Assembly: GCA_030647775.1 (NCBI GenBank)
Contig: JAUSJC010000010.1
Span: forward strand, 6,208 to 70,207
DNA length: 64,000 nt
Reading direction: 5' to 3'
Source of the DNA: Candidatus Curtissbacteria bacterium
GTDB lineage: Bacteria; Patescibacteriota; Microgenomatia; Curtissbacterales; GWA2-41-24
Shown here piece after piece: positions 1,893 to 24,086 of the stretch (positions are counted from its first letter, which is position 1; each line of letters begins with the position of its first letter). The notes under the pieces were generated by a model. The model did not search any database. It was not told where the DNA came from and saw only the letters and a list, made by a program, of their open reading frames with translations. The position numbers were made by a program, and so were the translations under genes.

Positions 1893-1893
1893 T

Positions 1894-2247: not shown

Positions 2248-2248
2248 A

Positions 2249-3226: not shown

Positions 3227-3238
3227 AGGGGGTGAGAT

Positions 3239-3697: not shown

Positions 3698-3701
3698 GCC
3701 T

Positions 3702-4049
3702 ATGCCGCTTTTTATACTGATAACACTTTTTGCAGTAGTTTTTGTTGCGCCGGTTTATGCCCAAACACCTGCACCGCCGGCCCAGATTTCGAATATTGTT
3801 AACGTCCTGGAAAATATCATCAAACTTTTAGCTCCCGCGGCCGGCATCGCCTTTTTTATCATGCTTCTTGTCGGCGGCTATAAATTTATCACTTCCGGCG
3901 GCGACCCAAAGGCGGTCGGCTCCGCCCGCTCCACTTTAACTTATGCCGTCATCGGCATCATTTTAGTCGTCGCCTCCTGGCTAATCCTCCAGTTAATTGC
4001 CACCTTCACCGGCGCCGACGTCACAACCGTTACAATTCCTACGAAATAA
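3702..4049 (+). CDS. VirB2/TrbC-like pilin paralog (115 aa).
   Basis: 'LVGGYKFITSGGDPKAVGSARSTLTYAVIGIILVV' is nearly identical in its loop to the 1894 paralog. Confidence 0.6.
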   Translation: MPLFILITLFAVVFVAPVYAQTPAPPAQISNIVNVLENIIKLLAPAAGIAFFIMLLVGGYKFITSGGDPKAVGSARSTLTYAVIGIILVVASWLILQLIATFTGADVTTVTIPTK

Positions 4050-4095: not shown

Positions 4096-6969
4096 ATGAA
4101 AAAACTCGCCGCCGTTTTTCTATTAGTCATCTTCTTTGGCGCTTCGATTATTGCGACCCCTCTCCAGGCAGGCCATAATCTCCCGGGAAGCCCCTACAAA
4201 AATCCAGACCCGGTAAGGGCCCCATATGGTGACCCCCTGTTCACGACCCAACTTACCAAAGTAACTATGAAACCGATTGAGAAGAAGCTCGAGGGTTTTG
4301 GATCAAACGGTCGCTATTCGGAAGCACAACAAGTAACTCTTGCACATACTTTTGATATTCCTGTTAATTTCGCTGAAGTTTCCGCAATATTCGCCAAATC
4401 TAACTCTGATTATCTGGAAGGCAAATTCCAAGACCAGGATCACCAAAACCAAAATCTGGTCAATTCAAACTCACAAAAATTTAATGAATTCTTTGGCCCC
4501 AGCCAAAAGCTTATGCCAAAAATTATGACAGATGAACTCAAGGTTGAATATATCAACTATGTCAAAGATCACGAGAACCTTCCGGAATACAAAACTAAAA
4601 TTACCGATATCGAAGGCAAAAATTCCAAAACCGTTAGTGATCTGGTGTCCCAATTTGGGATACCAGATTCATCAAAAATCGGATCCGATACATGGGGAAA
4701 ATATTGGGCTAAAATTCCGACAGCTTTTTCTCAACCATATTCCGGGTTTATGGTATTTAGAGTTGTTGACGGTAATAAGGAAAATGACCAAATATTAAAA
4801 CAAGGCACTTGCCCTGATAACGAAAACAACGACAGTCGAATGATTGATTTTGTTCTTCCGGAATATTTCCGGACTGCGGCAACCGCCAACGAATTAAATA
4901 AAATAATTCTCCCGAAAGCAGCCCAATCCGCGCAAAAAAACTTTTTAAAGGAGGCCGTTTCCGGTGTTATTAATAACCTCTCGCCGTTCAAAGATTCCGC
5001 TATTTCTAAAACTTTAGAAAAATTCTTAAGAAGAAGCTTCAATAATCTGAACCCTGTCAAAATTGTTTATGCGCAGACATCGGAGGAAGAGTTACCCCCC
5101 GAACTCCCACCAGAACTCCTACCTTACCGGGAACAATGCCATGCGCCAACGGAATTTCAACTAAAAGATAACCCGGGTTCTGGCCCTTTTTACTCTCTCC
5201 CGGAATTATCGGTACTTATCCCTACCCACCCCCCGCAACTCAATCCCCTTGTTTTTACTAAGAGAAAAAATCCCCAGCGCACAAAAGACCCGGTAACCGG
5301 GGAGAGCTGCAACAATATAGATACTCCCCGCAAAATAGACAACGGTAAGTTTGTAAATTGTACTTTTAAAAAAATCTACGAAAGACAGCTTACAATCGCC
5401 ACGCCAGAGGACGCCCAAGCTCTCGGATGGGATTACTGCACAGAAGGTAAAGATTTGGACGGTAATCCAAGTGGTGTTTCTACATGCTACTTAACTGTAA
5501 GAGTTTACCCGATCTTTTACGTTCCATGGCTTTCGTCAATTTGGAACGATACGGTTTACTCGGACAAAAATGATCCGGCTATTATCTCCGGTGCCCAAGA
5601 AACCGGCCGGCCGGGAATCTTCGGTCTATTTACATCCCAAGGGACAGAAAACTTTATATTCCCGGATGGCAAAAATTTGCCTAGCTTAGAAGATGGCTCG
5701 CGCGATATTAAACAACGTTTTATCGGCGCGGTCGATTGCAACAAGGAATTTATCAAAAATTTTGCTCTGTTACCAAAAGCCCTGCAAGGAAATGGCACAA
5801 GCGGGTGCAATCTAAAAACAAGTAATCTGCCCGGAACCCCAGGCGCCTCGGGTACGCTTGATTTCTATGTTAAATATGGCGACACAAGCATTATTCCGAA
5901 AGACCCCGAAGCAATTAAAAAACTCGCCAACAGTTCGTGGCCGGACAACAACACCAACAGATGGGATTATGTTGTGGACAAATGCGCTTCAAATGGTATC
6001 AGCCCCGCTTTCTGCATCGCCATATGGTGGAAAGAAGGTGGTTTTGGCGGCCTGCTCCCGGGAGGAGGCCGCGCCAATAGCGAATTCGGCTGTTTCCCCG
6101 GCGGCAACACCAACCTTAAAGTCAACTTTGAAGATAGTCTAAACTGCTTTGTAAAATTTACCGCCCAGGAACACCCATACAATCCTCAAAACCCTTATGG
6201 CTCATTTTACGATTGGGTTAAATACTTTTGCGGGCCTTTTTCAAAAGGCTTGTGTACACATGACGATGACGTAAGTAAAGAACACCCAAATTTTCTGCCA
6301 GTTTTAGAAAGTGTTTATAATTCTGTTGCGCCCGGCCAAATTATTTTTGTTTCCAACCCCAACCCGGGCAATCCGGGAACCACTCCGGTTCCCATCGCCG
6401 ATGAACTCTTCAACTTCAAAACAGGTGATAAAGACTGGACCGCTCCGGAGAAAGCGGCAATGAGCCAGACCGCAGGGGTTGCGAATAAATCAGCTGTCTG
6501 GAAAACTCTTGTCTTTGCCGCGGGCAAAATCAATCTACGCAGAGGTACCACAGACCCCGAATGCCCGGATACCTGCTCTGGTTTAGCGCAAGATCCAAAC
6601 ACGCTTCTGATTCGCGACCCCTTCTTCGACCACCCGTCAAGAACTCTCTCCGGCCAAGTTTTTATTATGACTCACGAACTCGCCCATATAATTCAATACC
6701 GCAACCCGTCAATCCTCAATCAGTACAAAAGTAGTGAGGCTTACAAAGAGTTCGAAGATAAAGGCGTAATCAGAAGTTATTTCCTCTGTCCCAACGTAAA
6801 ACCCGGACACTTCTGTGCCAACGGGGTGACGGCGGAAAATGAGGACTATGGGGAAATGGCTGGAAATTATGTCGCGGATCGCGATAGCTATCTGGTGGAC
6901 TTCCCCACAGAGTACCCGCAACACTATAAATTCGCCCAAGATGTATTGTTTGGAGGAACAACATTTTAG
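4096..6969 (+). CDS. Large secreted multidomain protein (957 aa) with a C-terminal HEXXH zinc-metallopeptidase-like motif and a possible lysozyme/SLT-like motif.
   Basis: Signal peptide. 'VFIMTHELAHIIQY' (HEXXH) near the C-terminus. 'SPAFCIAIWWKEGGFGG' loosely resembles the SLT catalytic Glu region. Cys-rich. Confidence 0.6.
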   Translation: MKKLAAVFLLVIFFGASIIATPLQAGHNLPGSPYKNPDPVRAPYGDPLFTTQLTKVTMKPIEKKLEGFGSNGRYSEAQQVTLAHTFDIPVNFAEVSAIFAKSNSDYLEGKFQDQDHQNQNLVNSNSQKFNEFFGPSQKLMPKIMTDELKVEYINYVKDHENLPEYKTKITDIEGKNSKTVSDLVSQFGIPDSSKIGSDTWGKYWAKIPTAFSQPYSGFMVFRVVDGNKENDQILKQGTCPDNENNDSRMIDFVLPEYFRTAATANELNKIILPKAAQSAQKNFLKEAVSGVINNLSPFKDSAISKTLEKFLRRSFNNLNPVKIVYAQTSEEELPPELPPELLPYREQCHAPTEFQLKDNPGSGPFYSLPELSVLIPTHPPQLNPLVFTKRKNPQRTKDPVTGESCNNIDTPRKIDNGKFVNCTFKKIYERQLTIATPEDAQALGWDYCTEGKDLDGNPSGVSTCYLTVRVYPIFYVPWLSSIWNDTVYSDKNDPAIISGAQETGRPGIFGLFTSQGTENFIFPDGKNLPSLEDGSRDIKQRFIGAVDCNKEFIKNFALLPKALQGNGTSGCNLKTSNLPGTPGASGTLDFYVKYGDTSIIPKDPEAIKKLANSSWPDNNTNRWDYVVDKCASNGISPAFCIAIWWKEGGFGGLLPGGGRANSEFGCFPGGNTNLKVNFEDSLNCFVKFTAQEHPYNPQNPYGSFYDWVKYFCGPFSKGLCTHDDDVSKEHPNFLPVLESVYNSVAPGQIIFVSNPNPGNPGTTPVPIADELFNFKTGDKDWTAPEKAAMSQTAGVANKSAVWKTLVFAAGKINLRRGTTDPECPDTCSGLAQDPNTLLIRDPFFDHPSRTLSGQVFIMTHELAHIIQYRNPSILNQYKSSEAYKEFEDKGVIRSYFLCPNVKPGHFCANGVTAENEDYGEMAGNYVADRDSYLVDFPTEYPQHYKFAQDVLFGGTTF

Positions 6970-6972
6970 TTT

Positions 6973-7320
6973 ATGGACGAAACAAACCGCCTGCAAGAAT
7001 CCAGAAGAATCGCTCTCCCGCTTGCTATTGTCATTGGAATTATTCTTTTAATCTCAATGGTTATAATCTTCGGGGTCCTAAATAAGAAAAGCCCTCCGCC
7101 GGGCTCTCAAACCCGCGAAAAGGTTATTTTAAACCTGCCCCGTCTTACTGCCGACTATTCGATTGTCTACGGAGAAAGAACAGACCATATTTACATCAAC
7201 CTGATTAACGAACCGTACGACCAAAACTATCAAAAGGCCATCAAATGGCTAAAGGACCAGGGCGCGGATATTGAAGAGCTAAATATCCAGGTTACTCCCG
7301 AACAGGCCCTTGACAACTAA
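6973..7320 (+). CDS. Small bitopic membrane protein, hypothetical.
   Basis: Single N-terminal TM (LPLAIVIGIILLISMVIIFGVL). Start lies 4 nt after the preceding stop. Confidence 0.45.
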   Translation: MDETNRLQESRRIALPLAIVIGIILLISMVIIFGVLNKKSPPPGSQTREKVILNLPRLTADYSIVYGERTDHIYINLINEPYDQNYQKAIKWLKDQGADIEELNIQVTPEQALDN

Positions 7321-7360
7321 CGCGCCAATTTCACGGACTTATCCCTCAAAGCAAGTAGAC

Positions 7361-7450
7361 TGTCATCCTCAACTTGATTGAGGATCAGATTCTCGCAGTT
7401 TACCCTGAAATGGATTCCCGCTTTCGCGGGAATGACAATTGAAGGGCGAG
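7361..7450. repeat. Two adjacent hairpins of the 'GTCATYC-stem-loop-stem-GAATC' REP-like family (family C), in opposite orientations.
   Basis: 'gtcaTCCTCAActtgaTTGAGGAtcagattc' and 'gattcccgctttcgcgggaatgac'. The same frame-and-loop design (loop 'cttga') recurs at 28995. Confidence 0.45.
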
Positions 7451-7701
7451 AATGACACTTGTTGTGAAAGGATAAATACCGATTTCACCATCTTGCTCCC
7501 GGTATCTCCCAATGTTAATCTAAATCTACATTCTTAAGCTCCGAAGTCTGTGACTCGCCCTTCCGTAACTTTACGTGAAGGAGGGAATTCAGACACTGTA
7601 CCGCAACCGTCATAGTCGGGTCGAAGGCTTAAGAAGTAAAAATCAGTCCTCGTGTTAAGGACATGCTTTGGCAAACCTTCTCGAGGCGAGGAGGTTTTTT
7701 G

Positions 7702-8838
7702 ATGGCCGAGCGAACCGCAGTTTTAGATAGACATATACCACCATTCGAAGGATCGCCGATCCCCGAAGCACAGCTTGGCTATAACATCCGCTTTGACCGC
7801 CAGGATTATCAAACCCTCGCATCCCAAAGGCCATATCTTTCTCCCCAAGAATTCCAAAGACGCTCCGATCAGCTAGATCTTCGAACCACACACAACCTCC
7901 AAACAATGCTTGGCGAACGTTTCACCGTCGAAATTTCCAAAGTTGAGTATCATCTTATCTCGGGGCAGCTACAAAACCCAGACCACGACGAACCGTTTTT
8001 AGAAATTATCAAACGCGGCCAAAAATTCCGCCAAGAACATGGCTCAAAAGAAATACCCCGTGAAGCGGCGGAAGCCGAAGGTTTTGCTAAGGTTCAAGAA
8101 ATACTAAATACCAGATATACAGAGCCATGCGATCCTAAAGGGCCTAACCAGATACCAGATATTAAAGTCATCGTTGTCTCCCCGCGCGGCCCGAAAGGCT
8201 CAATTTACCAGCACAATTTTTATGACGTTTACTCCCGAAGTTATGATGGCGCAATTACTATGTCCCGCTATACGTCAAAACTTTCTTACGAAGAATTTTA
8301 TCAATCTGCCCGATCAATCGACCCATTATTGAACCTATCCCAAAACCCTACCGACGCCGAATTTTTGGCAAATCCGCTAATCACCTATCAGTCTTTGGAC
8401 CAAATCCAGAAAATCTTTTGCCCACAAGAAAAAGTGATGACGCAAAAAGAATATCAAATGCTGCTCGAAACGTGCGGGTTTTTATTTACAACCTACATAA
8501 ACTGTCTTATAAATGGCTCACCGTTGGCAGAAATCCAAAAAGTCTATAACACCCTATTAAACTTTGCGGATGTTTGGCCAAATACCGTACCAATGCAAAA
8601 CACGGATCAGATTATTTCTCATTACGGAATACTACCGGTTCGCGTTGTCGCCGCCGGCTGCGGTATTCAAAGCGGCTCGGACTCACAAAATTACTCTTCC
8701 TGGTCTGTCGCCGAATTTGGCAAATGGTTTACGTGTCCTAAATGCAACTACGAAGCAACGGGCCCTGTTGGCAATACTTGCCCTGGCTGTGGATTGACAA
8801 AAGAAGAATTTGCCAAAGAATCCCTCGTTTGCGCCTAA
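7702..8838 (+). CDS. Hypothetical protein with a C-terminal zinc ribbon (CPKCN...CPGCG).
   Basis: ATG at 7702 is preceded by GAGGAGG at optimal spacing; the track's upstream start at 7663 lacks an RBS. C-terminal CxxC-x17-CxxC. Confidence 0.55.
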   Translation: MAERTAVLDRHIPPFEGSPIPEAQLGYNIRFDRQDYQTLASQRPYLSPQEFQRRSDQLDLRTTHNLQTMLGERFTVEISKVEYHLISGQLQNPDHDEPFLEIIKRGQKFRQEHGSKEIPREAAEAEGFAKVQEILNTRYTEPCDPKGPNQIPDIKVIVVSPRGPKGSIYQHNFYDVYSRSYDGAITMSRYTSKLSYEEFYQSARSIDPLLNLSQNPTDAEFLANPLITYQSLDQIQKIFCPQEKVMTQKEYQMLLETCGFLFTTYINCLINGSPLAEIQKVYNTLLNFADVWPNTVPMQNTDQIISHYGILPVRVVAAGCGIQSGSDSQNYSSWSVAEFGKWFTCPKCNYEATGPVGNTCPGCGLTKEEFAKESLVCA

Positions 8839-8880: not shown

Positions 8881-8962
8881 CGGGTTATTGGGCTGTTGGG
8901 ACATTAGGCTATTAGGAAGAGAGCACCTACCTAATCACCCACTAACCTAAAAACCTAATCGG
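8881..8962. repeat. Imperfect palindromic intergenic element, family A (TTGGG/TTAGG half then CCTAA half).
   Basis: 'ttattgggctgttgggacattaggctattagg ... cctaatcacccactaacctaaaaacctaatc'. Related copies at 14841, 15250, 27436 and 29630. Confidence 0.45.
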
Positions 8963-8968: not shown

Positions 8969-10465
8969 ATGAAAACTGTCCTTATAAAAATATCTTCAAT
9001 TCTTTTTATCTTTTTGTTCCTGACAATCGCATTTACTCCTCTCGCTCAAGCTCAAACATCGAAATGCACCCCGTCTGCAGATCTCAAAAATAACACCATT
9101 GACGCTATTAACCAATGCGCCATTGAAAGCGGTGCTTTTGATGATAAAATTTTTAATCTCAACCAAATTGCCGGCACAGTCGATAGCTTAAGTACTCTAT
9201 TAACCGGCCAATCTCAACTCCACCCGGCAACAAACAGCATCACCGCAGACGCCGGAGCGCTCACGGCTTCCGGAAAACTTATTGCCAGCCTTTATTCCAT
9301 TCCTCCCGTCTCCGGAGTCCAATATTTTGCACAACAAATTCAAAAATTTAACCCTGTCCAACCAGCTTATGCCCAAACATCTGCCGGAATCGGTTTTAAC
9401 GCACTATCACCGGTTCAAGATGTCTGGGCCGCTTTCAGGAATTTCTCTTACGTCGGCTTCGTCCTTGTCTTTATCGTCATCGGTTTTATGATTATGTTTC
9501 GCTCTAAAATTTCTCCGCAGGCCGTCGCCACCATCCAAGATTCACTGCCAAGAATTGTTGTCGCCCTCATCCTTGTCACCTTCAGCTACGCTATCGTCGG
9601 GTTGATGATTGATTTAATGTTCGTCCTCTTAAACGTTACAATTAACGCTTTAGGTGCTGCTGGCCTTACAACCGCCAATGCAGAAAAAGTAACCAACTCA
9701 AATGTCTTTAGCGTTGTCATGGGTTCACAAAAAGACATTTTTGGTGCGGTATTTGAAGCCGTTTCCGGCATTATTAAAAATGTATTTGATAATAATTGGT
9801 TAACTAAAATAATCGGGGTTCTCGGAGGATCAATTTTTGGGGTCATAGCAGGAATTGCCATGCTCTTTGTGATGTTCCGAATCTTTATAATGCTTTTGAT
9901 GTCCTACATAAGTATCATCATACTGACTATATTTGCTCCTTTTATATTACTTTTCCATGCCCTGCCCGGCAATAACGGCGCTAAAGAATGGTTCAAACAA
10001 GTAGGAGCCAACGTCGCCGTTTTCCCGACAGTTGCCTTAATGTTTATTTTGGCAGGGATGTTAAGCGGTATAGCATCACTCGGAGGCACAGCTGGCAGCC
10101 AGTTTAGTTCTGGTAACGTGGGGCAATTCCCTCTCCTTTCCGGGGGATTAGGACTTACAAATATCGGCAGTCTCATTGGTTTGGGTATTTTATTCATGAC
10201 ACCCGGAGCAGCAAAGATGGTTAAAGAAAGATTGGGAGTTAAAGAGGGTGCAATCGGAGCAGGCGGAGCCATGGCCGGTGCAGCTCTTGGCGCCGGAGCC
10301 GGCGCACTTGGCAGACCATTTGGTGCCGCTATCAACCCTGTCAGGCAATCACTCTCCTATCAATATGGGGCTGGAATGGCACAAAGAATCGGCAGATTTA
10401 CTGGTAAAACCGATAAAACCTCAACACCAAGCGAAGCAGAAGTAGAAGCAACCCAACGTTCTTAA
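8969..10465 (+). CDS. Polytopic membrane protein, VirB6/TrbL-like candidate (498 aa).
   Basis: Signal peptide, ~150-aa exported domain, at least five TM segments, and a Gly/Ala-rich hydrophilic tail, as in VirB6/TrbL. Lies within the T4SS-like locus. Confidence 0.5.
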   Translation: MKTVLIKISSILFIFLFLTIAFTPLAQAQTSKCTPSADLKNNTIDAINQCAIESGAFDDKIFNLNQIAGTVDSLSTLLTGQSQLHPATNSITADAGALTASGKLIASLYSIPPVSGVQYFAQQIQKFNPVQPAYAQTSAGIGFNALSPVQDVWAAFRNFSYVGFVLVFIVIGFMIMFRSKISPQAVATIQDSLPRIVVALILVTFSYAIVGLMIDLMFVLLNVTINALGAAGLTTANAEKVTNSNVFSVVMGSQKDIFGAVFEAVSGIIKNVFDNNWLTKIIGVLGGSIFGVIAGIAMLFVMFRIFIMLLMSYISIIILTIFAPFILLFHALPGNNGAKEWFKQVGANVAVFPTVALMFILAGMLSGIASLGGTAGSQFSSGNVGQFPLLSGGLGLTNIGSLIGLGILFMTPGAAKMVKERLGVKEGAIGAGGAMAGAALGAGAGALGRPFGAAINPVRQSLSYQYGAGMAQRIGRFTGKTDKTSTPSEAEVEATQRS

Positions 10466-10473
10466 AACCGGGA

Positions 10474-13400
10474 CTATTTCCCTGAAACCTGCGCGCTGGA
10501 TTGGCTAAAGACCCCTTTAAATAGCGCCCATAAGAAAACTAAAAAGAAAGGCATCAAGTTGCTCGGCTTTTTTAGTTCACTCCCCATCACCCGGATCATT
10601 TCCAGATATTCCTTCAAAGTCCTGATCGGTACTATACCGGGAATCCCAGCAAGCTTTAAATATTTCTCTTTCATTCTCTCCGCGTCCTTGTGGTCTAACC
10701 GGTTTGTAGCGGCAGACACATCAAGTATCTGTTCAATTTCCGCCGAAGGCATATTATATTCACGTCCCCACCAGTCTTTCCAATGCTTGCCCATCTCCTG
10801 ATGCATTGGAACCAGTAACTTCATCCACGGATGCATTCTTATCTCACGGGTTGAATAGAACATCTTACGGTTATTAATGCCCATAAAAGTTTTGGTATCG
10901 GGACTGTTTAAATACGTCTGGCAAGCGTCTGCCGCGAAATACTTCTTCGTTTCTTTTCTGTCTGTCCACCAGTCTCCCATATTGTATTTAATAATATTTG
11001 TTTTCTCATTACTAAAAACCTCGCTCCAGCTAATATTTTGAAAAGTTAACTCCCCGTCATCTACTAACTCCTCGAGTGCAACTCCCCTTACCCAACCCCT
11101 ATCATTGGAATCACCACCCTCCCAGTTATTATCTAAGCTTTTACCGCCATTCCACTTTCCAATGTCGAGCTTACGCCCGTTATCGATATTCTTCATCCTG
11201 TCTGCAACTACATTCGCAAAACGTCTACTGGGGATACCAGGCCTTGCAACAACCAGCTTGTTTGCAATACCAGCATCAACATCATCATCCATTCGCAGCT
11301 TGTCATTGATAAGTTTAATAAGTAAGCGGTTATTGCCCAGTATTCCGCGCCTTCTGCCAAGCATATGTTTCGTTAATATGTAGTTGGCGTCCCTTGGCCT
11401 GCCTCTTACCTCATTTTGTAAAAATTCACCATAATGGTCTACCATCCTGCCAAACCAAACATCCGAATAATTGTTAAAAACAAAAGCCCCAAGCTTTTTT
11501 CTGCTCCTGCCATTATCATCCTTAAACCATTCTCCCTTTTTTTTGTCTCTATCCCATATCCTTATGCCGTCATAATCGGAAAACCCTCCCAATGTCCAAG
11601 TTACGTTGTAACCGTTATTAATAACCTGATCCAAAAGCCCCGCCTGAAGAAATTCGTCAATCTTATCACCCGATAAGCCCATTCCACCCAATCTGGTTTT
11701 AAGCGCATCAAGCAGGTCTTTCTTTCTCGTCCTTAAATAATGATAATCAGGGTCTGTTTCCTTATAACCGTGAGCACCCAGTAAAGTAGTCTCTCGATAC
11801 CAATCCAAAACAACTTTTTCCGCATTGCTAGGTTTAGCCCAGTATTCATTTATTGCATCATCGCTGGCGCCAACCCCAATTTTTTTCTTTACATAACCCT
11901 TTATCTCATCCCTTAATCGATTAAGTTCACCACGATCGACTACTGCCGATTTATCAAAAAGGTTCTTAATCTCTTCCGGCACGGTAACAAAATCTGTAGT
12001 TATATCTACTAAAGTCAGGCCTTCGACAAGATTCATCTGTGCCCTTTCCTTTGAAAACCGCTCAAAATAAACCTTCATCGCAACATCCAGTAAGTTAAAC
12101 TTTTCCGTCTCGTAAACCGGATTTCCACTGGCATCAACAATAGGATTACCAGCGGCATCTTTTTTCTGAATTCGGGAAACGAAATCATCCCCGTTATGAT
12201 CTTGAAAAAACCTGTCGAAAAAGATTTTAAAAGTATCATCCTTCCATAAGTTATTGCCAGCAATCGCTTCAAGCACTTTATCCGGATCCATCGCGTGCCC
12301 CTCCATAGTCAGGCGCAGAGAATAAATCGCAATAACCGCGTCTCTTAATTCATCTATTTTCATTTTCAGCTCCATCGCCTCCTTCTTTTCCTTTCCTGTT
12401 AAAGTTTCAACGGGTATCGCGTCAGAAATTTGGGTGATTACTTGTCTCACCCGACTAACTTCTTCCTGCGTCGAATTACCCGATTCCAACCGCCTGAAAT
12501 TGTTTTGCACATTCTTCATTGAGTCTTGCCAGTCTTTTGGGATACCGTATTCTGACTCTCTAACAATATTCAATCTGACACCCTCAAAAGTCGTCGAGGC
12601 TCTCCATTCCAGAAGCCCTTCAGCCCCCGCCACAGCTGGACGGCTTTTTGCGTACTCATAAAGCTGATAGTCAAAATCAGGCAGATGAATATTACCGATA
12701 CTAAGAGACCCCTCCAACTCTTTAATTTTGATGTCAAGAGGGTTAAAAAGACGCGCCCTTACCCCCGGCCCCAAAGCCTGAGCCCTCCCTCGAAGGGCCT
12801 CATCCATCTCTTTGGATAACTTTTTAAGATCATCTCTTCTAGCTTTGGGTACAATGCTGTCCAAAATTGCTTGTCTCGGGGTCCCTTTTGCTAAAATCTC
12901 ATGAGTTTCAATAGCATTCCCCAAGTTCTTTACAAAACGGTACCCGTCACCTCCAACCGTAGCTAGCCTTCTTGCTTCGATAAATTGGAAATCGAGAACC
13001 TCCCTCCGTGCATCAACAGCATCCACCTGAATTATCGTCAGGGGCCCAATAAGTGAAGTCTTAACGAGTAATTCCTGTATTATCTTCTCCGTAGAACCCA
13101 GCTTGACTAAACGAGCCATAATTCTCCCTTTAGCAACTCCAAACTCAGCATCAAATGCAACAGTGTCAGCCATTATCCTTTGTATGGATTTCAATGTCTC
13201 TAGCTGTAAAAGGTTGTAATCAACCAAGGAGTCCCTGTAGCTTTCATAGTCCATACGTCTCATCTCCATCATGTCTCCCAAACGCTTCTCATAATCTGAA
13301 TAAAAATCTTCAAATTTCCGAAATATTTCAGGCCTATCATCGCTCGAGCCTAACGCTCCACGCATCTCCATATCATCTAATATTCCAAGCCTCCTATGAA

Positions 13401-14598
13401 GCTCTTCAACTTGGTCTGGACCCAAAGCAGCTGTTGTTGCACCGAATACTGTACCCCCTCCGGCAATTGCTGGAACAATCCGCATACCATTCTCCTCCGC
13501 CCAAGCTAACCGCTCATTCCTGCCCATCCCACCCCAAATATCCGGTGTCTCCAAACGCTTATCGACCCCTGCCCCCTTAAAAAATCTATTGATGTCACCA
13601 ACAACATCTTCGCTTTTATAAAGTGGATAATTGACAGCAACATATTTTCCACCTTCTGTTTCGTAAACTTCAGCGTTTGTATTAGGATCAATAAATCTCA
13701 ATTTAAAATCAGGATCAACCTCACCTGCAGGAAAAGCGGTCGTGTTGGATATTCCGCGACTGTTTAATAAATCCATCTTTTTGACTGGATCATCCCTGTC
13801 CCACGTATCGGGAAGTTTTACATTGACCCCTTGCGCTGTCAAGGCCGCCTCCGCAAGCTCCCTGGGCATATTCCATAGATGAGGATACGTTCCGACAATC
13901 TTCGGCCTTTCTCCGGTGGTATCTTCCTCCTTCGCTACTTTTCTTCCCCTATGTATCTCTTCCGCCTCGACGGCACCAACCACAACTCTTTTCCCAACTT
14001 TCTCCCTTGTCAAAGTCTCTTCTTCAAGATCTCTGGCTTTCTCGATCTTCAAACGGGCTAAGTCCTCTTCAACTTTTCTTTCTTTTGTTCCGGCACGGGC
14101 TTCGAAATCCTCATTCGCTGGTTCGGCAATATCCACATCCTCTTCACGCATAACCCCCTGGGCTTCAACCACAATATCGGCAGAGGACATCTTATCGACT
14201 TCTTCAAGCATATATCCCCTTTCCAAAAGAATGTCCTTAAGCCGCTTAAATTTCTCGTAAGGAACCGCAACTTGCCCATCGCCATCCCTCAACTCTGCTA
14301 GAATTTCTGCAGCCGCTTTTGCATCTTTAAACGGTAATTTTACTGGTTGTTTGTTTGGGGTTGGCTTTTCGTCCGACTTATAAGTTGCCGGTTTGGATTC
14401 TCCCCCCTGTCGACTTTTTTCTTCTTCGCTTTGCCTAGGAGATTTTTTGGCTCCCTTTTTATCGGCCTCCTTTTTGCCCTCATCTGTTCTCCTTTTCTTC
14501 TCGTTATCCAAACGGCGCTGCTCTCTTTTTTGTTCCTCGTCTCTTCCTGGGGTTTCTTCTGGCATATTCATATTATATCCAAAACTTGCTTCCGACAT
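10474..14598 (-). CDS. Giant orphan protein (~1374 aa) with a Lys/Glu/Arg-rich low-complexity N-terminus and a hydrophobic C-terminal tail. No recognisable catalytic motif.
   Basis: Single uninterrupted frame. ATG at 14598 is preceded by AAGGAAG; the track start at 14631 is a GTG. No Walker A or relaxase HxH motifs seen. Confidence 0.6.
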   Translation of the reverse strand: MSEASFGYNMNMPEETPGRDEEQKREQRRLDNEKKRRTDEGKKEADKKGAKKSPRQSEEEKSRQGGESKPATYKSDEKPTPNKQPVKLPFKDAKAAAEILAELRDGDGQVAVPYEKFKRLKDILLERGYMLEEVDKMSSADIVVEAQGVMREEDVDIAEPANEDFEARAGTKERKVEEDLARLKIEKARDLEEETLTREKVGKRVVVGAVEAEEIHRGRKVAKEEDTTGERPKIVGTYPHLWNMPRELAEAALTAQGVNVKLPDTWDRDDPVKKMDLLNSRGISNTTAFPAGEVDPDFKLRFIDPNTNAEVYETEGGKYVAVNYPLYKSEDVVGDINRFFKGAGVDKRLETPDIWGGMGRNERLAWAEENGMRIVPAIAGGGTVFGATTAALGPDQVEELHRRLGILDDMEMRGALGSSDDRPEIFRKFEDFYSDYEKRLGDMMEMRRMDYESYRDSLVDYNLLQLETLKSIQRIMADTVAFDAEFGVAKGRIMARLVKLGSTEKIIQELLVKTSLIGPLTIIQVDAVDARREVLDFQFIEARRLATVGGDGYRFVKNLGNAIETHEILAKGTPRQAILDSIVPKARRDDLKKLSKEMDEALRGRAQALGPGVRARLFNPLDIKIKELEGSLSIGNIHLPDFDYQLYEYAKSRPAVAGAEGLLEWRASTTFEGVRLNIVRESEYGIPKDWQDSMKNVQNNFRRLESGNSTQEEVSRVRQVITQISDAIPVETLTGKEKKEAMELKMKIDELRDAVIAIYSLRLTMEGHAMDPDKVLEAIAGNNLWKDDTFKIFFDRFFQDHNGDDFVSRIQKKDAAGNPIVDASGNPVYETEKFNLLDVAMKVYFERFSKERAQMNLVEGLTLVDITTDFVTVPEEIKNLFDKSAVVDRGELNRLRDEIKGYVKKKIGVGASDDAINEYWAKPSNAEKVVLDWYRETTLLGAHGYKETDPDYHYLRTRKKDLLDALKTRLGGMGLSGDKIDEFLQAGLLDQVINNGYNVTWTLGGFSDYDGIRIWDRDKKKGEWFKDDNGRSRKKLGAFVFNNYSDVWFGRMVDHYGEFLQNEVRGRPRDANYILTKHMLGRRRGILGNNRLLIKLINDKLRMDDDVDAGIANKLVVARPGIPSRRFANVVADRMKNIDNGRKLDIGKWNGGKSLDNNWEGGDSNDRGWVRGVALEELVDDGELTFQNISWSEVFSNEKTNIIKYNMGDWWTDRKETKKYFAADACQTYLNSPDTKTFMGINNRKMFYSTREIRMHPWMKLLVPMHQEMGKHWKDWWGREYNMPSAEIEQILDVSAATNRLDHKDAERMKEKYLKLAGIPGIVPIRTLKEYLEMIRVMGSELKKPSNLMPFFLVFLWALFKGVFSQSSAQVSGK

Positions 14599-14840
14599 AC
14601 AATCTTCCTTTCTATCGCCAATTATAATCACCTACCCTATAGTTGCTTGACTTTAACCTGACAGCCAATCTGACAATTTTGTCAGACGCTAAAAGCTAAA
14701 CGACAAACGACTAAGACAAGATAAAAATCAGTATTAATTTTCATGGTCAGTGTGAAAATCTGGGCCTATTTTGAGGCTAGATATTTCCACTTCTCTGCTC
14801 TTGTTTCATATGTTATGGTAACTTTGGTGACAAAGTTACC

Positions 14841-14913
14841 AGGCTATTGGGTACTTAGGTAATTAGGTTATTGGGAGACTAACCAAACAACCCAAAGACC
14901 TAAAAGCCTAATC
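14841..14913. repeat. Family A palindromic element immediately upstream of the four-helix-bundle gene.
   Basis: 'ggctattgggtacttaggtaattaggttattggg agact aaccaaacaacccaaagacctaaaagcctaatcgcc'. Confidence 0.45.
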
Positions 14914-14925
14914 GCCATTTCAAAA

Positions 14926-15318
14926 ATGGGTGATTTTACAAAACTTATTATTTGGCAAAAAGCTCACGATCTAACAATTAAGGTCTACGCTTTAACAAAA
15001 AAGCTACCTAAAACCGAAGATTATAGCTTGAAATCGCAATTGAGACGAGCTGCAGTCTCCTGTGAGTCAAACATTGCCGAAGGAGAAACCAGATACACTG
15101 ACGCAGCAAAAATCAACTTCTTTGTAGATTCAAGGTCATCCGGTGCAGAAGTTCAAAGTCAGTTGATGATTATGCGTGACGTTTATCCAGAATTATCAGA
15201 AGAATCCGAAGCATTACGTTTGGAATACGAAGATTTTTGCAAACAAACCAACAGCCTAATTTCGTTTAGAAGAAAATCTAACCTAATATCCCAAAATCCA
15301 AAAAACCTAACAGCCTAA
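14926..15318 (+). CDS. Four-helix-bundle protein (family formerly called 23S rRNA intervening-sequence protein).
   Basis: 'IWQKAHDLTIKVYALTKKLPKTEDYSLKSQLRRAAVSCESNIAEGE' matches the TIGR02436-type signature. Its 3' end is built from a family-A CCTAA half-repeat. Confidence 0.75.
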   Translation: MGDFTKLIIWQKAHDLTIKVYALTKKLPKTEDYSLKSQLRRAAVSCESNIAEGETRYTDAAKINFFVDSRSSGAEVQSQLMIMRDVYPELSEESEALRLEYEDFCKQTNSLISFRRKSNLISQNPKNLTA

Positions 15319-16826
15319 TGAACCAACACCCTGTCCCGCAGCATATCGCCTCTTTCGAATTTAAGCTTTTTGGCAACCTTACCATCCGCCAATTTGTCGC
15401 TCTTTCCATTCCAATGTCTGTTGCCGCCCTTATTTTCTTTTCCCCGGGCCCAACCATCATCCGCTTTCCATTTTCCATCTTCTTCGCCGGCCTCGGCCTG
15501 TTTGCCGCTCTTGTCCCGGTCCAGGGACGCCCTTTTGATAAATGGGTCGTTGCCTTCACGAGGGCCATCCTTTCACCAACCCAAAGGGTTTGGGTTAAAG
15601 AAGCCAAAATCCCGCAGTTTTTAAATATCATCATAAACCAGCCCAAACACCCCAATGAGCCCCCCCAACCCATTACCTTTCAGGACCGCCAAAGGCTTTC
15701 CCAGTACTTGAGATCACTCCCCAAATCCACAGTTTCGCCTCTGGATGTTAGAGAACAGCAGGCCATCGAAAAGCTCGGCCTCGTTCCTCCGGTGCAGGGC
15801 TTGCCCTCCGAAGCTTTAGCGAAGGAGGGCAAACTTCCCCCTTCAATCCTTTGGACAACTGCCGGCCCCAAGACCAAACAGGCGTTCGTCCAAACTACCG
15901 AACCGATCTTGGAAGAACGGTTCCAGGGAATTATGCCCCAAGCCTTACCCCAAATAACTCCGCTTGGAAAACCGGCAACCGCCGTTAGAATCAGCCCCCA
16001 CGCTAAACCGTATGCCCTGCCCGGCCTGGAAAAAAGGCTCGCCGAAAAACAAATTCTCGTTTCCCCCACGCTTCAGCTGGCTTCAAACACCAACTTTTCT
16101 ATTGAAAACATCATTCCTATCCCCGGCAAACATGTCAGGCTTCTGCACGGTCTTACCAAAAGCCGCACGCGAAAACTCCATTTTGCCCCGCCGAAGAATT
16201 TCAATCTTGCCAATCTGCCGGTGCGCGGCGAAGCAAGATTCGAAGTCTCCGAAGAATTGAAAAAACGCTTCCAATTTAATGAACCGGCACTCCAGCCTAT
16301 ACCCCAAGCCCAAGAAACCCCGGTGCAAACACCGAAAATCGAAGTTGAACCGCAACGCGCGTCCGCTCACCAGGCGCCAAGGCCGCCGAAACAAAATCAA
16401 TTTGTTCCCAGACCGCAAACAGCTCACTTCACTGCCCAAAACGCCACGCTAAAACAGGAAGAATCCGAACGTGCAGATTCGCAAATGACCATTCGGGGCC
16501 AAAAGGTTGACGGCACCAAATCTGCTTCTATTTTAGAAAGGGCCCGTATTATCCCTTTAACAAACACCCCCAATGTTCTCTCCGGCTTGGTTTCCGATGC
16601 CGCCGGTATTCCTCTTGAAGGCGCAATCATTACTGTCCGCGACCAAAGCGGCATACCGGTTCGCGCCTTAAAAACCAATAAGCTTGGCCAGTTTCTTTCA
16701 ACAACTCCTCTTATAAGCGGCGTTTATTCTTTGGAAATTGAGCACACAAACGCCCGTTTTGAACCAATCACCATTAATCTTATCGGCAACATTGTGGTAC
16801 CACTGGAGATTAAAGCCAAAGGATGA
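15318..16826 (+). CDS. PrgI-like (VirB3-analogous) T4SS membrane protein with a ~380-aa C-terminal extension.
   Basis: N-terminal 'FEFKLFGNLTIRQFVALSIPMSVAALIFF ... FFAGLGLFAALVPVQGRPFDKWV' gives two TM helices typical of the PrgI family. Lies just upstream of virB4. Confidence 0.5.
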   Translation: MNQHPVPQHIASFEFKLFGNLTIRQFVALSIPMSVAALIFFSPGPTIIRFPFSIFFAGLGLFAALVPVQGRPFDKWVVAFTRAILSPTQRVWVKEAKIPQFLNIIINQPKHPNEPPQPITFQDRQRLSQYLRSLPKSTVSPLDVREQQAIEKLGLVPPVQGLPSEALAKEGKLPPSILWTTAGPKTKQAFVQTTEPILEERFQGIMPQALPQITPLGKPATAVRISPHAKPYALPGLEKRLAEKQILVSPTLQLASNTNFSIENIIPIPGKHVRLLHGLTKSRTRKLHFAPPKNFNLANLPVRGEARFEVSEELKKRFQFNEPALQPIPQAQETPVQTPKIEVEPQRASAHQAPRPPKQNQFVPRPQTAHFTAQNATLKQEESERADSQMTIRGQKVDGTKSASILERARIIPLTNTPNVLSGLVSDAAGIPLEGAIITVRDQSGIPVRALKTNKLGQFLSTTPLISGVYSLEIEHTNARFEPITINLIGNIVVPLEIKAKG

Positions 16827-17803
16827 AAATCATGTCACAAACTCCTAAAACTAAAGCTTCAACCCAACAGCACCTTGATGTCGAAGATATCACCGAAGAC
16901 TTGGTCATTTTAAAAACCGGCTGGGTGGCCATGGTCATGTCGACAACTGCCATCAATTTCGACCTTCTTTCTGAAGCCGAACAAGACGCTACAATCTATG
17001 CTTTCGGCGCCTTTTTGAATTCGCTCACTTTCCCGCTTGAAGTATTAATTAGAAGTAAAAAAGCCGACATTACCTCTTACTTCCAAAGCCTTGAGGAAGC
17101 CCAGCGCATTCAGCCTAACCCTGATCTTAAAAGGCAAATCCAAAAATATCAGGAGTTTATTCAGGCAACCGTCCAGCAAAAAACAGTTTTGGATAAAAGG
17201 TTCTATTTAATCATTAATTATTCCCCGCTTGGGCCCGAGTTTAAAGGCTTCGGCAAAAATAGCCAAAACCCAAAGAGTAAGGCCCAGCTTATCCAAACTG
17301 CCAAAAGCGCTCTTTCCCCGAAGCGCGACCATGTTATCAAACAAACCGCCAGGCTTGGTATTAATACCCGCCAGCTCATGTCGCAGGAATTGATCGAACT
17401 TTTTTATGATATTTATAACCCGGCCCCAACCGGCACTCAAAGGGTTATTTTGGATGCCGCCTCGTACACTACCCCGCTGGTAGAACCGGCAATCGCCAAC
17501 CCCACGCCGGCATCAGGGCCGGCTGTCGAACAGGAACTTACCAATATTAATAGACCGCAAGCAGGTGAAATAGTAACTCAGCAGGAAACAAATCTGCGAC
17601 CCGTACCGCCAGCCTCGACGCCCGCTTCGACGCGAGGCGAGCTAGGCGGGTCAGCCTCGGCTCAAGGCGGGCCGCCTCCGACGCAGGCTCCACCTGTACC
17701 CCAGCCGGCACAATATGTCACCGCTGCACCGACCCAAGCCGAGCCGCAAGCCGTGGCCCCAAACCCTAACCCAATTCAGGAAACTGGAGGTAACAACCAA
17801 TGA
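16823..17803 (+). CDS. Hypothetical T4SS-associated protein with a Pro/Ala-rich C-terminus, translationally coupled to virB4.
   Basis: ATGA overlaps at both ends. No TM segment. Sits between the PrgI-like gene and virB4. Confidence 0.5.
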   Translation: MKIMSQTPKTKASTQQHLDVEDITEDLVILKTGWVAMVMSTTAINFDLLSEAEQDATIYAFGAFLNSLTFPLEVLIRSKKADITSYFQSLEEAQRIQPNPDLKRQIQKYQEFIQATVQQKTVLDKRFYLIINYSPLGPEFKGFGKNSQNPKSKAQLIQTAKSALSPKRDHVIKQTARLGINTRQLMSQELIELFYDIYNPAPTGTQRVILDAASYTTPLVEPAIANPTPASGPAVEQELTNINRPQAGEIVTQQETNLRPVPPASTPASTRGELGGSASAQGGPPPTQAPPVPQPAQYVTAAPTQAEPQAVAPNPNPIQETGGNNQ

Positions 17804-19620
17804 AGTTTTTCCCTGATATCTTTGGTAAAAAACCGCAAGCCGCCGCCAATCTTTCCGATCAGGAAAGCGGCTGGGCCCAAACGCTGGCAACCGGATCGGT
17901 TTCAGTCCAGGATATCATCGCCCCTCCGGCCATAGAAGTTGATTTCGATTTCATTAAAATCGGCGCCTATTATTACCGCACCCTTTTTGTCATCGGCTAC
18001 CCCCGGTTTGTCGAGGCAAACTGGCTCTCCCCCTTAATTAACTTTGAGCACACATTGGAAATTGCTCTCTACTCTTATCCGGTCGAGGCCAAAGGCGTCC
18101 TTGACGACTTAAAGCGCAAAATGACCGAAATGGAGGCAACCATTGCTACCGATATCCAGCACGGGCACCTAATCGACCCGGCTGTCCAGGCTGCGCTAGA
18201 AGATGCCCAGATGCTTCAGGAAGAACTGGTCAAAGGCGCCGAAAGGTTCTTTCAGTTTGGCCTTTATGTCACTGTCCCGGCACAATCCAAAGAAGAACTC
18301 GATGAAGTCACCAAGCAAGTCGAATCAACGCTTGGCTCCCTGCTTCTTGTCCCAAAACACGCCTCACTGCAGCAGGAAGATGCTTTTAAAACCACCCTCC
18401 CGCAAGGTACCGACCACATTTATATCACCAGGAATATGGATACCACTTCCCTGGCCACAACTTTCCCTTTTGTCTCCTCATCGCTAACCTCCAATTCCGG
18501 CATCATGTACGGCATCAATGAGCATAACGGCTCATTGGTAATTTTCGACCGTTTTAGCCAGGAAAACGCCAATTCCGTAATCTTTGCCAAATCCGGCGCC
18601 GGCAAATCTTATCTGGTTAAACTCGAAGCCCTCCGTTCCCTCATGTTTGGCACCGAAGTCATTGTCATCGACCCCGAAGAAGAATATAAAACCCTTTGCC
18701 AGGCAATCGGCGGCGAGTTAATCAGCTTTAACTTCTCATCTGAAGCCAAAATCAACCCTTTCGACCTTTCCGGAATCTATGAAGAAGGCGAAAACGAACT
18801 GGGCTTAAAAATCCTTTCCCTCCACGGGCTTTTTAAAATAATCATGGGCAATCTTACCCCTTCGGAAGATGCCCTCCTTGACCGTGCGCTGGTTGCCACC
18901 TATAAAGCCAAAGGCATCACCCCCGATCCGGCTACCCAGCAAAACGAACCGCCTTTGATGGAAGACCTCTATAAAGTTTTAATTGGTATGGAAGAGTCAA
19001 CCGCCAAGGGCCTTGCCGACAGGATTGAAAGATTCGTTAAGGGCTCACTAGTTGGCATCTTCAACCAGCAAAGCAATATCGATATCAAAAATACCTTCAC
19101 CGTTTTTTCGATTAAAGACCTGGAAAACGAACTTCGCCCCATTGCTATGTACTTAATTTTGGATTTCATCTGGACCAAGGTCAAAAATGATATCAGGAAA
19201 CGGCTTCTAATAGTCGACGAGGCCTGGTACTTAATGCAGTATCCGGACAGCGCTTCATTTATGTACGGCATCGCCAAACGCGCCAGAAAGTATTACCTTG
19301 GCTTAACGACAATCACCCAGGATGTCGAAGATTTTCTAACCACCGACTACGGCCGCGCTATCGTTACCAACTCAAGTATCCAGATTCTTCTTAAACAATC
19401 CCCGGCGGCCATCGACCAGGTCGCCGATACTTTTTACCTTTCCGAGGGCGAAAAGCATCTTCTCCTTTCTGCCGATATTGGGGAAGGCATCTTTTTTGCC
19501 GGCCCCAACCATGTTGCCATCAGGATTGTGGCTTCAGACGATGAGCATGCCCTCGTAACCACTAATCCAAAGGAACTCCAGGAGATGGCCAAAGCCCAAG
19601 AACTCCAAAAGCAATTTTAA
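17800..19620 (+). CDS. virB4: VirB4/TrbE-family T4SS ATPase (606 aa, short Gram-positive/CPR type).
   Basis: Walker A 'IFAKSGAGKSYLV' and Walker B 'RLLIVDEAWYLM'. N-terminal 'IEVDFDFIKIGAYYYRTLFVIGYPRFVEANWL' resembles the VirB4 N-domain. Confidence 0.8.
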   Translation: MKFFPDIFGKKPQAAANLSDQESGWAQTLATGSVSVQDIIAPPAIEVDFDFIKIGAYYYRTLFVIGYPRFVEANWLSPLINFEHTLEIALYSYPVEAKGVLDDLKRKMTEMEATIATDIQHGHLIDPAVQAALEDAQMLQEELVKGAERFFQFGLYVTVPAQSKEELDEVTKQVESTLGSLLLVPKHASLQQEDAFKTTLPQGTDHIYITRNMDTTSLATTFPFVSSSLTSNSGIMYGINEHNGSLVIFDRFSQENANSVIFAKSGAGKSYLVKLEALRSLMFGTEVIVIDPEEEYKTLCQAIGGELISFNFSSEAKINPFDLSGIYEEGENELGLKILSLHGLFKIIMGNLTPSEDALLDRALVATYKAKGITPDPATQQNEPPLMEDLYKVLIGMEESTAKGLADRIERFVKGSLVGIFNQQSNIDIKNTFTVFSIKDLENELRPIAMYLILDFIWTKVKNDIRKRLLIVDEAWYLMQYPDSASFMYGIAKRARKYYLGLTTITQDVEDFLTTDYGRAIVTNSSIQILLKQSPAAIDQVADTFYLSEGEKHLLLSADIGEGIFFAGPNHVAIRIVASDDEHALVTTNPKELQEMAKAQELQKQF

Positions 19621-19624
19621 AATC

Positions 19625-19715
19625 GCTAAACGCTAATCGACTAAAGACTAACGCAAACATTAACCCTTCGTCGTTAGTCGTTCGCCTGCCTTGCCGGCAG
19701 GCAGGTCGTTCGTCA
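19625..19715. repeat. Family B element: GACTAAAGACTAACG arms around a 'gcctgccttgccggcaggcagg' palindrome.
   Basis: A 36-nt core is identical to 40943-40978. Related arms at 53644 and 57843. Confidence 0.5.
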
Positions 19716-19737
19716 AATGTTATATTGGTATTAACCC

Positions 19738-23790: not shown

Positions 23791-24086
23791 TAATTCCTAA
23801 ACTTTATTTTAAAAACAACTCTCCCCCCGAGGGCTTTATTAATGTCCTTTATCAGCCCGCCAGCGCGCATTAAAAGTTCTGTCCGCGCCAGTCCCTGCAC
23901 CTTTACGGTTAACTCCCCATTTTTGAAACTGGTTGCCTTGGCGCTCTCTATTGCCTCTTTCGGCAAATCGGGAGTCGCCAAAAGCACATCACCAAAAGCT
24001 CTCCTTACAAAAAGTGCGAACATTGCCTCACTCGTTTTTGAATGGCGCGGTAGATTTCTGATTAATTTATCAATAGAGGTGAACAC
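23787..24086 (-). CDS. DUF721/DciA-like small protein next to dnaN.
   Basis: 99 aa. 'FKNGELTVKVQGLARTELLMRAGGLIKDINKALGGRVVFKIKF' fits the DUF721 pattern. Conserved dnaA-dnaN neighbourhood. Confidence 0.45.
   Translation of the reverse strand: MFTSIDKLIRNLPRHSKTSEAMFALFVRRAFGDVLLATPDLPKEAIESAKATSFKNGELTVKVQGLARTELLMRAGGLIKDINKALGGRVVFKIKFRNY

Follow-up and report, generated by a model that had tools for sequence, protein, structure and literature searches.

Patescibacteria account for much of bacterial diversity, and the members cultivated to date live attached to host cells. Their type IV secretion system (T4SS), which resembles the mating-pair formation FATA (MPF-FATA) type, comes without a relaxase or a coupling protein close by, and the sole species tested requires it for epibiotic growth (PMC10633639, PMC12102498, PMC12857230). 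The published loci lie near the replication origin, and genes for the type IV coupling protein (T4CP) are rarely found near virB4 and are non-essential in S. epibionticum (PMC12102498). In Saccharimonadia, a hydrophilic mass is fused to a polytopic VirB6-type protein and is essential (PMC10633639, PMC12857230); the S. epibionticum locus has two such proteins of about 1,000 residues, both essential, with large ARM-like hydrophilic domains (PMC10633639). Published surveys report the cargo of this T4SS type as unknown (PMC12102498, PMC10633639). Here we describe a 1,374-residue protein, hereafter the giant protein, encoded inside such a locus of Candidatus Curtissbacteria (Microgenomatia, Patescibacteria), which are ultra-small and presumably host-dependent bacteria. 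The stretch analyzed, hereafter the window, covers 64,000 nucleotides (positions 6,208 to 70,207 of contig JAUSJC010000010.1, assembly GCA_030647775.1).

A single giant protein, CagA, is likewise encoded inside the cag T4SS cluster of Helicobacter pylori. CagA has about 1,200 residues, with a long disordered region and a structured helical body, and it associates with membranes. Its alleles vary markedly between strains whose secretion machinery is almost identical. To our knowledge, CagA has no homologues outside its own clade and its fold is without precedent. The cag system also includes Cag-beta as coupling ATPase and CagF as chaperone. Xanthomonas T4SS effectors (X-Tfe) carry a conserved C-terminal recognition domain of about 120 residues, XVIPCD.

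The window locus matches the MPF-FATA-like T4SS of Patescibacteria (Quinonero-Coronel et al. 2025; Wang et al. 2023) in its VirB4, TrsD/TraC-like and PrgI proteins, its array of VirB2-like pilins, its M23 hydrolase, its proximity to dnaA and dnaN and its lack of a nearby relaxase or T4CP; neither of the latter two was found among the window open reading frames (ORFs) scanned. The window also contains yidC, leuS and groEL. Since dnaN and dnaA are present about 10 kb from the T4SS genes, the locus is chromosomal and lies beside the replication origin. The VirB4 (MDO8487148.1), DnaA (MDO8487153.1) and GroEL proteins of the window match exactly those of a Candidatus Curtissbacteria metagenome-assembled genome. 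A preliminary description, made from the DNA sequence, had compared the giant protein with proteins of conjugative elements, among others. The giant gene is not on such an element: the locus is chromosomal and adjoins dnaN/dnaA, and a tblastn search with the giant protein against 72,556 plasmids and 50,697 phages gave no match.

The giant protein belongs to an undescribed accessory family of this known system type. The main texts of Quinonero-Coronel et al. 2025 and Wang et al. 2023 mention no conserved large cytoplasmic protein in Microgenomatia loci. The phylum-wide survey compared virB4 neighbours with known MPF profiles only and does not describe the giant protein (PMC12102498); nor do the S. 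epibionticum transposon-sequencing paper (PMC10633639) and a 2025 T4SS review (PMC12857230). A literature search found no paper joining Curtissbacteria with type IV secretion. From its sequence features and setting, we favour a role of the giant protein as a dedicated substrate translocated by the T4SS, a reading to which we give a probability of about 40%.

A protein family fixed in the secretion locus

The giant-protein coding sequence occupies positions 10474..14598 on the minus strand (stop codon 10474-10476), according to the ORF list and its translation. It is single-copy in the window and, as stated in the preliminary description, the sole long minus-strand ORF within the plus-strand block 753-23790. 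A mechanical ORF call extends the gene to a GTG codon (10474..14631, minus strand). The ATG at 14598 is preferred, and it is supported as the start by an N-terminal peptide, M.E..[FV].A.G....Y....G..MP[ED], shared by the homologues. The good ribosome-binding site noted earlier can be read directly from the sequence as AAGGAAG (14605..14611, minus strand), 6 nt 5' of this ATG.

The protein had been called an orphan. An exhaustive phmmer search with residues 231-1374 against 1.84 billion cluster representatives instead matched 90 representatives at E<=1e-3, 74 of them at E<=1e-10 and 43 at E<=1e-30 (best E 4e-200). Nearly all members have 1,000-1,400 residues. The window protein itself shows significant full-length similarity to the family, the C-terminal motifs described below and the T4SS-locus location. 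A word-indexed homology search with the single protein returned one match, P0001, 68% identical and from a groundwater metagenome; with the 69-sequence alignment or the C-terminal-core alignment as query, such searches gave P0001 or nothing. We ascribe this near-empty result to the divergence and partly low complexity of the family. A degenerate-DNA pattern scan of 185,579 species genomes found nine true members, three of them titled Candidatus Curtissbacteria, and one chance match. Another protein of the family, OGE03234.1 / A0A1F5HGI0, carries a hypothetical annotation. The giant protein is a member of an undescribed family that is confined to Candidatus Curtissbacteria as far as sequence can detect it. 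The gene is kept in related genomes, and no ordinary housekeeping family could be assigned to its product.

Related metagenome loci are designated by L-numbers and the window by W. Several "binchicken" metagenome-assembled contigs with clear family members (L012, L014, L016-L018) are titled uncultured Gammaproteobacteria or Saccharibacteria. These titles are probably unreliable as taxonomy.

In all eight diverse family members examined, the giant gene lies tail-to-tail with a VirB6-like gene of about 500-540 codons, with PrgI, TraC-like and VirB4 genes alongside. The two stop codons are 3-11 nt apart, with a 4-nt overlap in L006; in the window, 8 nt separate the convergent VirB6-like and giant genes (10465-10474). 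A terminator would not fit into so short a gap, which implies that the two transcripts overlap in antisense. A gene for a four-helix-bundle protein usually stands between the giant gene and the PrgI/TraC-like/VirB4 side. The giant gene is usually on the strand opposite to the rest, but in L003, L035 and L036 it directly follows VirB4 and shares its strand. A VirB6-like gene and VirB4 adjoin the giant gene in every lineage examined, so that the neighbourhood proposed for checking in the preliminary description, and with it the link to the pilus locus, is real and conserved.

The reverse test started from 80 metagenome loci retrieved with VirB4. A family member is present in 13 of 13 loci with VirB4 at >=79% identity and full 10-kb flanks. 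Four loci with shorter flanks also carry one, and the nine misses have less than 6.5 kb of upstream sequence. Exceptions are L023 and possibly L038, where the giant gene is not within about 6 kb upstream. In the chromosomal T4SS locus near oriC, the giant family is represented by one gene at a fixed place.

Further out, among 54 loci with VirB4 at 65-76% identity, a detectable relative occurs only in L048, with a hidden Markov model E value of 2e-18 and an hhalign alignment of the C-terminal 287 columns at a probability of 97.6%. Twelve loci of this group were inspected. Several of them carry an opposite-strand cytoplasmic ORF that is convergent with the VirB6-like gene. These slot ORFs encode 555-1,208 residues and are mostly unrelated to the giant family and to one another by BLAST and hhalign. 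Several have basic, arginine-rich or amphipathic C-termini.

Architecture of the giant protein

Several regions can be distinguished, all encoded on the minus strand. Residues 1-94 (14317..14598) comprise the short conserved N-terminal peptide and then a K/E/R-rich, presumably disordered stretch that is weakly conserved even with the 68% homologue. In most family members, the first ~100 residues are charged and presumably disordered. Residues 95-230 (13909..14316) form a segment that is also charged but has high identity to P0001. K, R, E and D together account for about 46% of the first 200 residues. The low complexity previously ascribed to the N-terminal ~230 residues therefore applies to about residues 1-94, but not to the well-conserved 95-230 segment.

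The remainder was modelled with AlphaFold2 (residues 231-1374, 69-sequence alignment as input), giving a predicted local distance difference test (pLDDT) score of 91.2 and a predicted template-modelling score (pTM) of 0.77. The C-terminal core alone, residues 790-1374, reached a pLDDT of 92.6 and a pTM of 0.90. The model agrees with the earlier description of a largely helical body. Residues 231-380 (13459..13908; model residues 1-150, pLDDT ~70-94) are predicted to form small alpha/beta modules, helix-loop-helix-strand units on a small sheet, and family conservation is low there. Residues 394-800 (12199..13419) would form a long, all-helical, solenoid-like region in which family conservation begins at about residue 600. 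The conserved C-terminal core, residues 790-1374 (10477..12231), is predicted to be mixed alpha+beta.

Conservation across the family is concentrated in the C-terminal 600-770 residues, and the N-terminal half varies in sequence and length. The core carries the six columns that are invariant in 69 sequences (N835, E1063, G1066, D1209, D1213 and R1251) and the shared motifs RF..D..G, ER..MN.vE, WY...TL.GA, DH..EF...E.RGR, D...DR and FYS.R..R..PWM. The giant protein has one cysteine only.

The predicted architecture, although confidently modelled, has no match among solved structures. Searches of the PDB by sequence and by profile retrieved designed helical repeats only (E>=0.01), and the best Foldseek hit of the model in the PDB has an E value of 9.5e-3 at a template-modelling score of ~0.1. 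No fold resemblance to VirD4, TcpA or DotL-complex proteins was observed. The giant protein matches no model in Pfam, NCBIfam, PHROGs or PADLOC. Pfam matches among 67 family members are scattered over single members at E>0.003 and were taken as chance.

In agreement with the preliminary description, a regular-expression scan of the giant protein detected no helicase, relaxase, methylase or conserved Walker A motif, specifically no HUH, DEAD/H, methylase or HExxH signature. The one formal Walker A match, GKWNGGKS (residues 1147-1154), was treated as chance because it lies inside a non-conserved insertion that is absent from the 68% homologue. The suggested primase or anti-restriction identity was not borne out. 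A relaxase, primase, ArdC, Sog, TraC primase or methylase-helicase identity was rejected on the lack of a model match and of a catalytic motif and on absence from the plasmid and phage collections. A coupling ATPase of the VirD4/TcpA kind was likewise rejected: there is no VirD4/TraG-D model match, no conserved P-loop and no ATPase fold. The N-terminal transmembrane anchor expected of a coupling protein is also missing, the N-terminus being highly charged.

Sequence and topology analysis agree with the earlier claim that the giant protein has no signal peptide. No internal transmembrane segments were predicted, compared with the >=5 helices of a VirB6 protein. Its sole hydrophobic segment by hydropathy and transmembrane prediction is 1346-1366, LMPFFLVFLWALFKGVF. 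It lies in a hydrophobic/amphipathic C-terminal helix, residues 1345-1371 (10486..10566), followed by a conserved ...AQ.xGK end; this helix is seen in the hydropathy profile, in the family alignment and, at lower pLDDT, in the AlphaFold model. Family members end in such a conserved amphipathic or hydrophobic helix and then ...AQLxGK, and the basic end is conserved as well. The hydrophobic last ~30 residues described previously are thus confirmed for the window protein. Family-wide, hydrophobicity is moderate: a transmembrane-like score is reached in 20% of members and the median uncharged run is 12 residues, which argues against a canonical tail anchor. The C-terminal helix may be a tail anchor, a peripheral membrane helix or a docking or secretion tail. 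A tail-anchored helical bundle of the Bcl-2-like or pore-forming kind was also considered. We know of no C-terminal translocation-signal consensus for MPF-FATA or Patescibacterial systems.

Divergence and probable allele replacement beside a nearly invariant motor

The ratio of nonsynonymous to synonymous substitution rates (dN/dS) against the 68% homologue is 0.23 for the giant gene, 0.18 for VirB6-like, 0.13 for TraC-like, 0.11 for PrgI and 0.037 for VirB4. No 100-codon window of the giant gene exceeds 0.43. Judged by these rates, the ORF is a real, functional gene under purifying selection, though less constrained than the motor genes.

W, L001 and L004 group closely together, with identities of 95-97% for VirB4, 79-84% for TraC-like and 74-82% for PrgI. 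At the DNA level, W and L004 are 83-84% identical over PrgI-TraC-VirB4 (83.6% over the whole block) and dnaN, and 74-81% over the pilins. Three islands cannot be aligned: 4104-8835, containing the genes for a 957-residue secreted protein and for proteins of 115 and 391 residues; 10301-14606, containing the giant gene; and 19619-23796, containing an M23/YkuD hydrolase gene and a gene for a 351-residue protein. The 3' part of the VirB6-like gene, next to the giant gene, has also diverged, and the 70 nt directly upstream of the giant gene are 83% identical. The giant protein of W is 70% identical to that of L001. Compared with L004, it is 19% identical globally and 25% over 397 residues by BLAST, while VirB4 is 97%, PrgI 82% and TraC-like 78-81% identical.

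Over 153 locus pairs, giant-protein and VirB4 identities are uncorrelated (Spearman -0.09, p 0.25); saturation of VirB4 identity at ~81-87% in the clade weakens this test, but pairs of high identity are still discordant. For instance, L028 and L032 share 93% identity in VirB4 and 18% in the giant protein, whereas L027 and L040 share 82% and 54%, respectively. GC content does not mark the giant gene as foreign. From sequence comparison, we read this pattern as rapid divergence to which recombinational allele replacement has been added, both decoupled from the VirB4/PrgI/TraC-like motor, which hardly varies. The T4SS loci here are mosaics of an ultra-conserved motor and hypervariable islands.

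Upstream elements and other features of the locus

A promoter-like element, TTGTCAGATTGGCTGTCAGGTTAAAGTCAAGCAAyTATAGGGT...TATAAT, precedes the giant gene (14618..14676, minus strand) and is conserved in the window, L001 and L004. It occurs once in the window, contains a TGTCAG direct repeat and TATAAT, and is 83% identical to L004 at the nucleotide level although the coding region cannot be aligned. From its sequence, we infer a promoter function. Further upstream, a perfect hairpin, GGTAACTTTG/CAAAGTTACC, is followed by ATAACATATGAAACA (14802-14848, minus strand); it is unique in the window and conserved upstream across genomes. The flanking repeats of two families reported in the preliminary description were not reproduced: each element (14657-14676 and 14802-14822) occurs once in the window, yet both are conserved upstream of orthologues. 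A palindromic operator, CTGACAATTTTGTCAG, at 14670-14685 was considered and given no weight because it is confined to the window genome and not conserved in 100 loci.

The only nearby element that recurs in the window is a CCTAAT/CCCAAA-rich low-complexity repeat at 14872-14920. It has 8-nt phasing and is intergenic, with further copies at 8930-8959, 15279-15327 and 27501-27557. One copy is directly upstream of dnaA, a possible oriC region. Other repeats were observed elsewhere. A 49-nt repeat with 94% identity (19667-19715 and 40941-40989) contains the GC-rich palindrome GCCTGCCTTGCCGGCAGGCAGG and is found in the gap between the VirB4 and hydrolase genes and beside leuS; it could be an element of the repetitive extragenic palindromic type or a terminator. 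An 83-nt direct repeat with 86% identity is located at the 3' end of a Wzy_C-type gene (30819-30901) and upstream of a polysaccharide-synthesis gene (31748-31830). A reverse transcriptase gene (RVT_1, E 2e-13; 61493-62869, plus strand) is located at the end of the window where GC content is low (36-38%), and no repeat within the 64 kb ties it to the T4SS locus.

The T4SS block opens with six VirB2-like pilin genes (753-4049, plus strand). The 957-residue protein of the first island (4104-8835) has a signal peptide. The 391-residue protein (7663-8838, plus strand) is predicted to be cytoplasmic and ends in a CPGCG...C motif. Its gene is hypervariable, with no BLAST match to the 346-residue counterpart of L001 and 28-36% identity to L004 and L006. 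The VirB6-like polytopic membrane protein (8969..10465, plus strand) has a signal peptide and about six transmembrane segments, with weak NCBIfam matches to VirB6-type proteins of Mycoplasma integrative and conjugative elements. On the other side of the giant gene, a four-helix-bundle protein (TIGR02436 / 23S_rRNA_IVP, Avd-like; 14926..15318, plus strand) is encoded between it and PrgI. A homologue adjoins the giant gene in L002, L004 and L006-L008, and the L006 locus has two copies. The PrgI/VirB3-like fusion (15318-16826), the TraC-like/TrsD protein (16823-17803) and the VirB4 ATPase (17800-19620) follow on the plus strand. The island at 19619-23796 encodes a 998-residue M23+YkuD peptidoglycan hydrolase with predicted transmembrane segments and the 351-residue protein, which is bitopic.

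Possible functions of the giant protein

The preliminary description had mentioned T4SS substrates or effectors, and this idea is still the leading one: the link to the locus is conserved, and translocation is what the following features suggest. The giant protein has no signal peptide and is encoded in a secretion locus without a known substrate or coupling protein. A conserved C-terminal module with its tail is combined with a variable N-terminal half, and alleles appear to be exchanged. In sister lineages, the slot is filled by unrelated proteins. The divergence of the giant protein resembles that of a host interface, and the other unalignable islands encode a signal-peptide protein, a peptidoglycan hydrolase with predicted transmembrane segments and the 391-residue protein. 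In the mechanism that we propose, the giant protein would be made in the cytoplasm, as the lack of a signal peptide suggests. It would join the membrane or the T4SS base through the conserved C-terminal core and the moderately hydrophobic, positively ended helix, and the pilus-bearing T4SS would deliver it to the host cell. The variable N-terminal half, with its disordered charged region, alpha/beta modules and helical solenoid, might provide a host-specific activity, and the conserved C-terminal ~600-770 residues might serve recognition, translocation and any shared activity.

The comparison with CagA is a functional analogy only. There is no sequence or structural similarity, the disordered region is C-terminal in CagA and N-terminal in the giant protein, and the giant-protein locus differs from the cag system with its Cag-beta and CagF. 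X-Tfe proteins likewise pair a variable N-terminal part with a conserved C-terminal part, in the present case for possible recognition by the machine. However, the conserved part of the giant protein is much longer than XVIPCD, there is one copy per genome, and neither an adjacent immunity gene nor an identifiable toxin domain was seen.

Several points weigh against translocation. No recognized toxin or enzyme domain was found in the 67 family members scanned. The strictly single copy, the fixed position and the 600-770-residue core would also fit a structural or adaptor subunit. A compact helical protein of more than 1,000 residues would need unfolding for transport, and the C-terminal tail could be a mere membrane anchor. 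With a dN/dS so close to that of VirB6-like, pervasive positive selection is not demonstrated. Finally, the saturation of VirB4 identity blunts the argument from decoupled phylogenies.

In the main rival explanation, which we hold to be somewhat less probable, the giant protein is a subunit of the machine. It would be a non-ATPase cytoplasmic docking or coupling scaffold, tethered C-terminally to the membrane beside the VirB6-like protein, PrgI and VirB4, and replacing a VirD4-type protein in substrate recruitment or channel gating. Like VirD4 and TcpA, it would then be a membrane-tethered partner of VirB4/VirB6 on the cytoplasmic face that selects substrates. The absence of a coupling protein from the locus leaves a functional gap that it could fill, and the rarity of T4CP genes near virB4 and their non-essential character in S. 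epibionticum (PMC12102498) point the same way. One copy per locus in a fixed slot tail-to-tail with the VirB6-like gene, a long helical-repeat region of the kind found in interaction scaffolds and purifying selection resembling that on VirB6-like are all consistent with such a scaffold. So are the large ARM-like hydrophilic domains of Saccharimonadia VirB6-type proteins (PMC10633639). Extended VirB6 proteins, such as F TraG and S. epibionticum SEML1_0011/0013, also have a bulky helical, hydrophilic part that is linked genetically to VirB6. By analogy, the ARM-domain proteins of S. epibionticum could be a functional counterpart of the giant protein, which differs, in this comparison by description, in being separate, encoded on the opposite strand and devoid of polytopic transmembrane segments. 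Compared with VirD4 and TcpA, it lacks conserved Walker A/B motifs, a P-loop, Pfam or NCBIfam matches and any resemblance in fold, also to DotL-complex proteins, and its anchor would be C-terminal rather than N-terminal. A scaffold would account for the one-per-locus position, but not for the extreme divergence beside 97%-conserved partners: the partners are 82-97% conserved and the giant protein 19-25% identical, its phylogeny is decoupled from that of VirB4, and unrelated ORFs of very different sizes occupy the slot in neighbouring lineages.

Deeply divergent alleles in near-identical loci, shared independently of VirB4, might alternatively reflect a self/non-self or exclusion/immunity determinant. 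Exchangeable alleles would keep sibling or competing epibionts from attacking one another through the T4SS or docking onto one another, as in the TraG-Eex pair of F-like/SXT elements. The giant gene adjoins the VirB6-like gene, whose near 3' part has diverged too. We consider this unlikely. It leaves the 600-770-residue conserved core and its invariant polar residues unexplained, and no cognate variable partner was found, the 391-residue neighbour varying independently. Moreover, the exclusion and immunity proteins that we know of are small membrane or periplasmic proteins, not cytoplasmic ones of more than 1,000 residues.

Less likely still is a housekeeping or cell-biological role apart from secretion (cytoskeletal, envelope or chromosome-associated), the synteny with the T4SS arising merely via oriC. 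The dnaN/dnaA genes are indeed only ~10 kb away, and the K/R/E-rich disordered N-terminus could bind nucleic acid; but the giant gene is embedded within the T4SS block and keeps its position there on rearrangement (L003, L035, L036), and housekeeping proteins do not drop to 19% identity between genomes with DnaA proteins of a single 90% cluster. That the giant gene is the hypervariable target of a diversity-generating retroelement, as the Avd-like gene (14926-15318), the RVT_1 protein in the window and the hypervariability might suggest, is effectively refuted: no template/variable repeat pair with the giant gene exists in the 64 kb, the reverse transcriptase is 47 kb away, the divergence extends along the entire gene and peaks in the N-terminal half rather than in a C-terminal variable region, and the four-helix-bundle protein belongs to TIGR02436 (E 2e-28), scoring 21 bits with the retroelement Avd model against a cutoff of 80.

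Returning to the giant protein as a translocated substrate, a wider and more tentative version would include the unrelated slot occupants of sister lineages. Together with the giant family, they could be the cargo of the Patescibacterial T4SS: giant, host-specific proteins that the VirB2-like pilus apparatus either injects or carries, that insert their moderately hydrophobic tail into the host membrane and that diversify by allele exchange in an arms race with the host. If true, they would be effectors of a new class and fold, and epibiont T4SS loci would be built around a "variable cargo slot". Conserved, cytoplasmic, encoded within the locus and diverging independently of the motor, the giant family is a tangible candidate for what the Patescibacterial T4SS transports or for the receptor of its substrate. 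The question of the cargo so becomes testable by localization, translocation and interaction experiments. The giant protein also has a confidently predicted architecture that is unmatched in the PDB.

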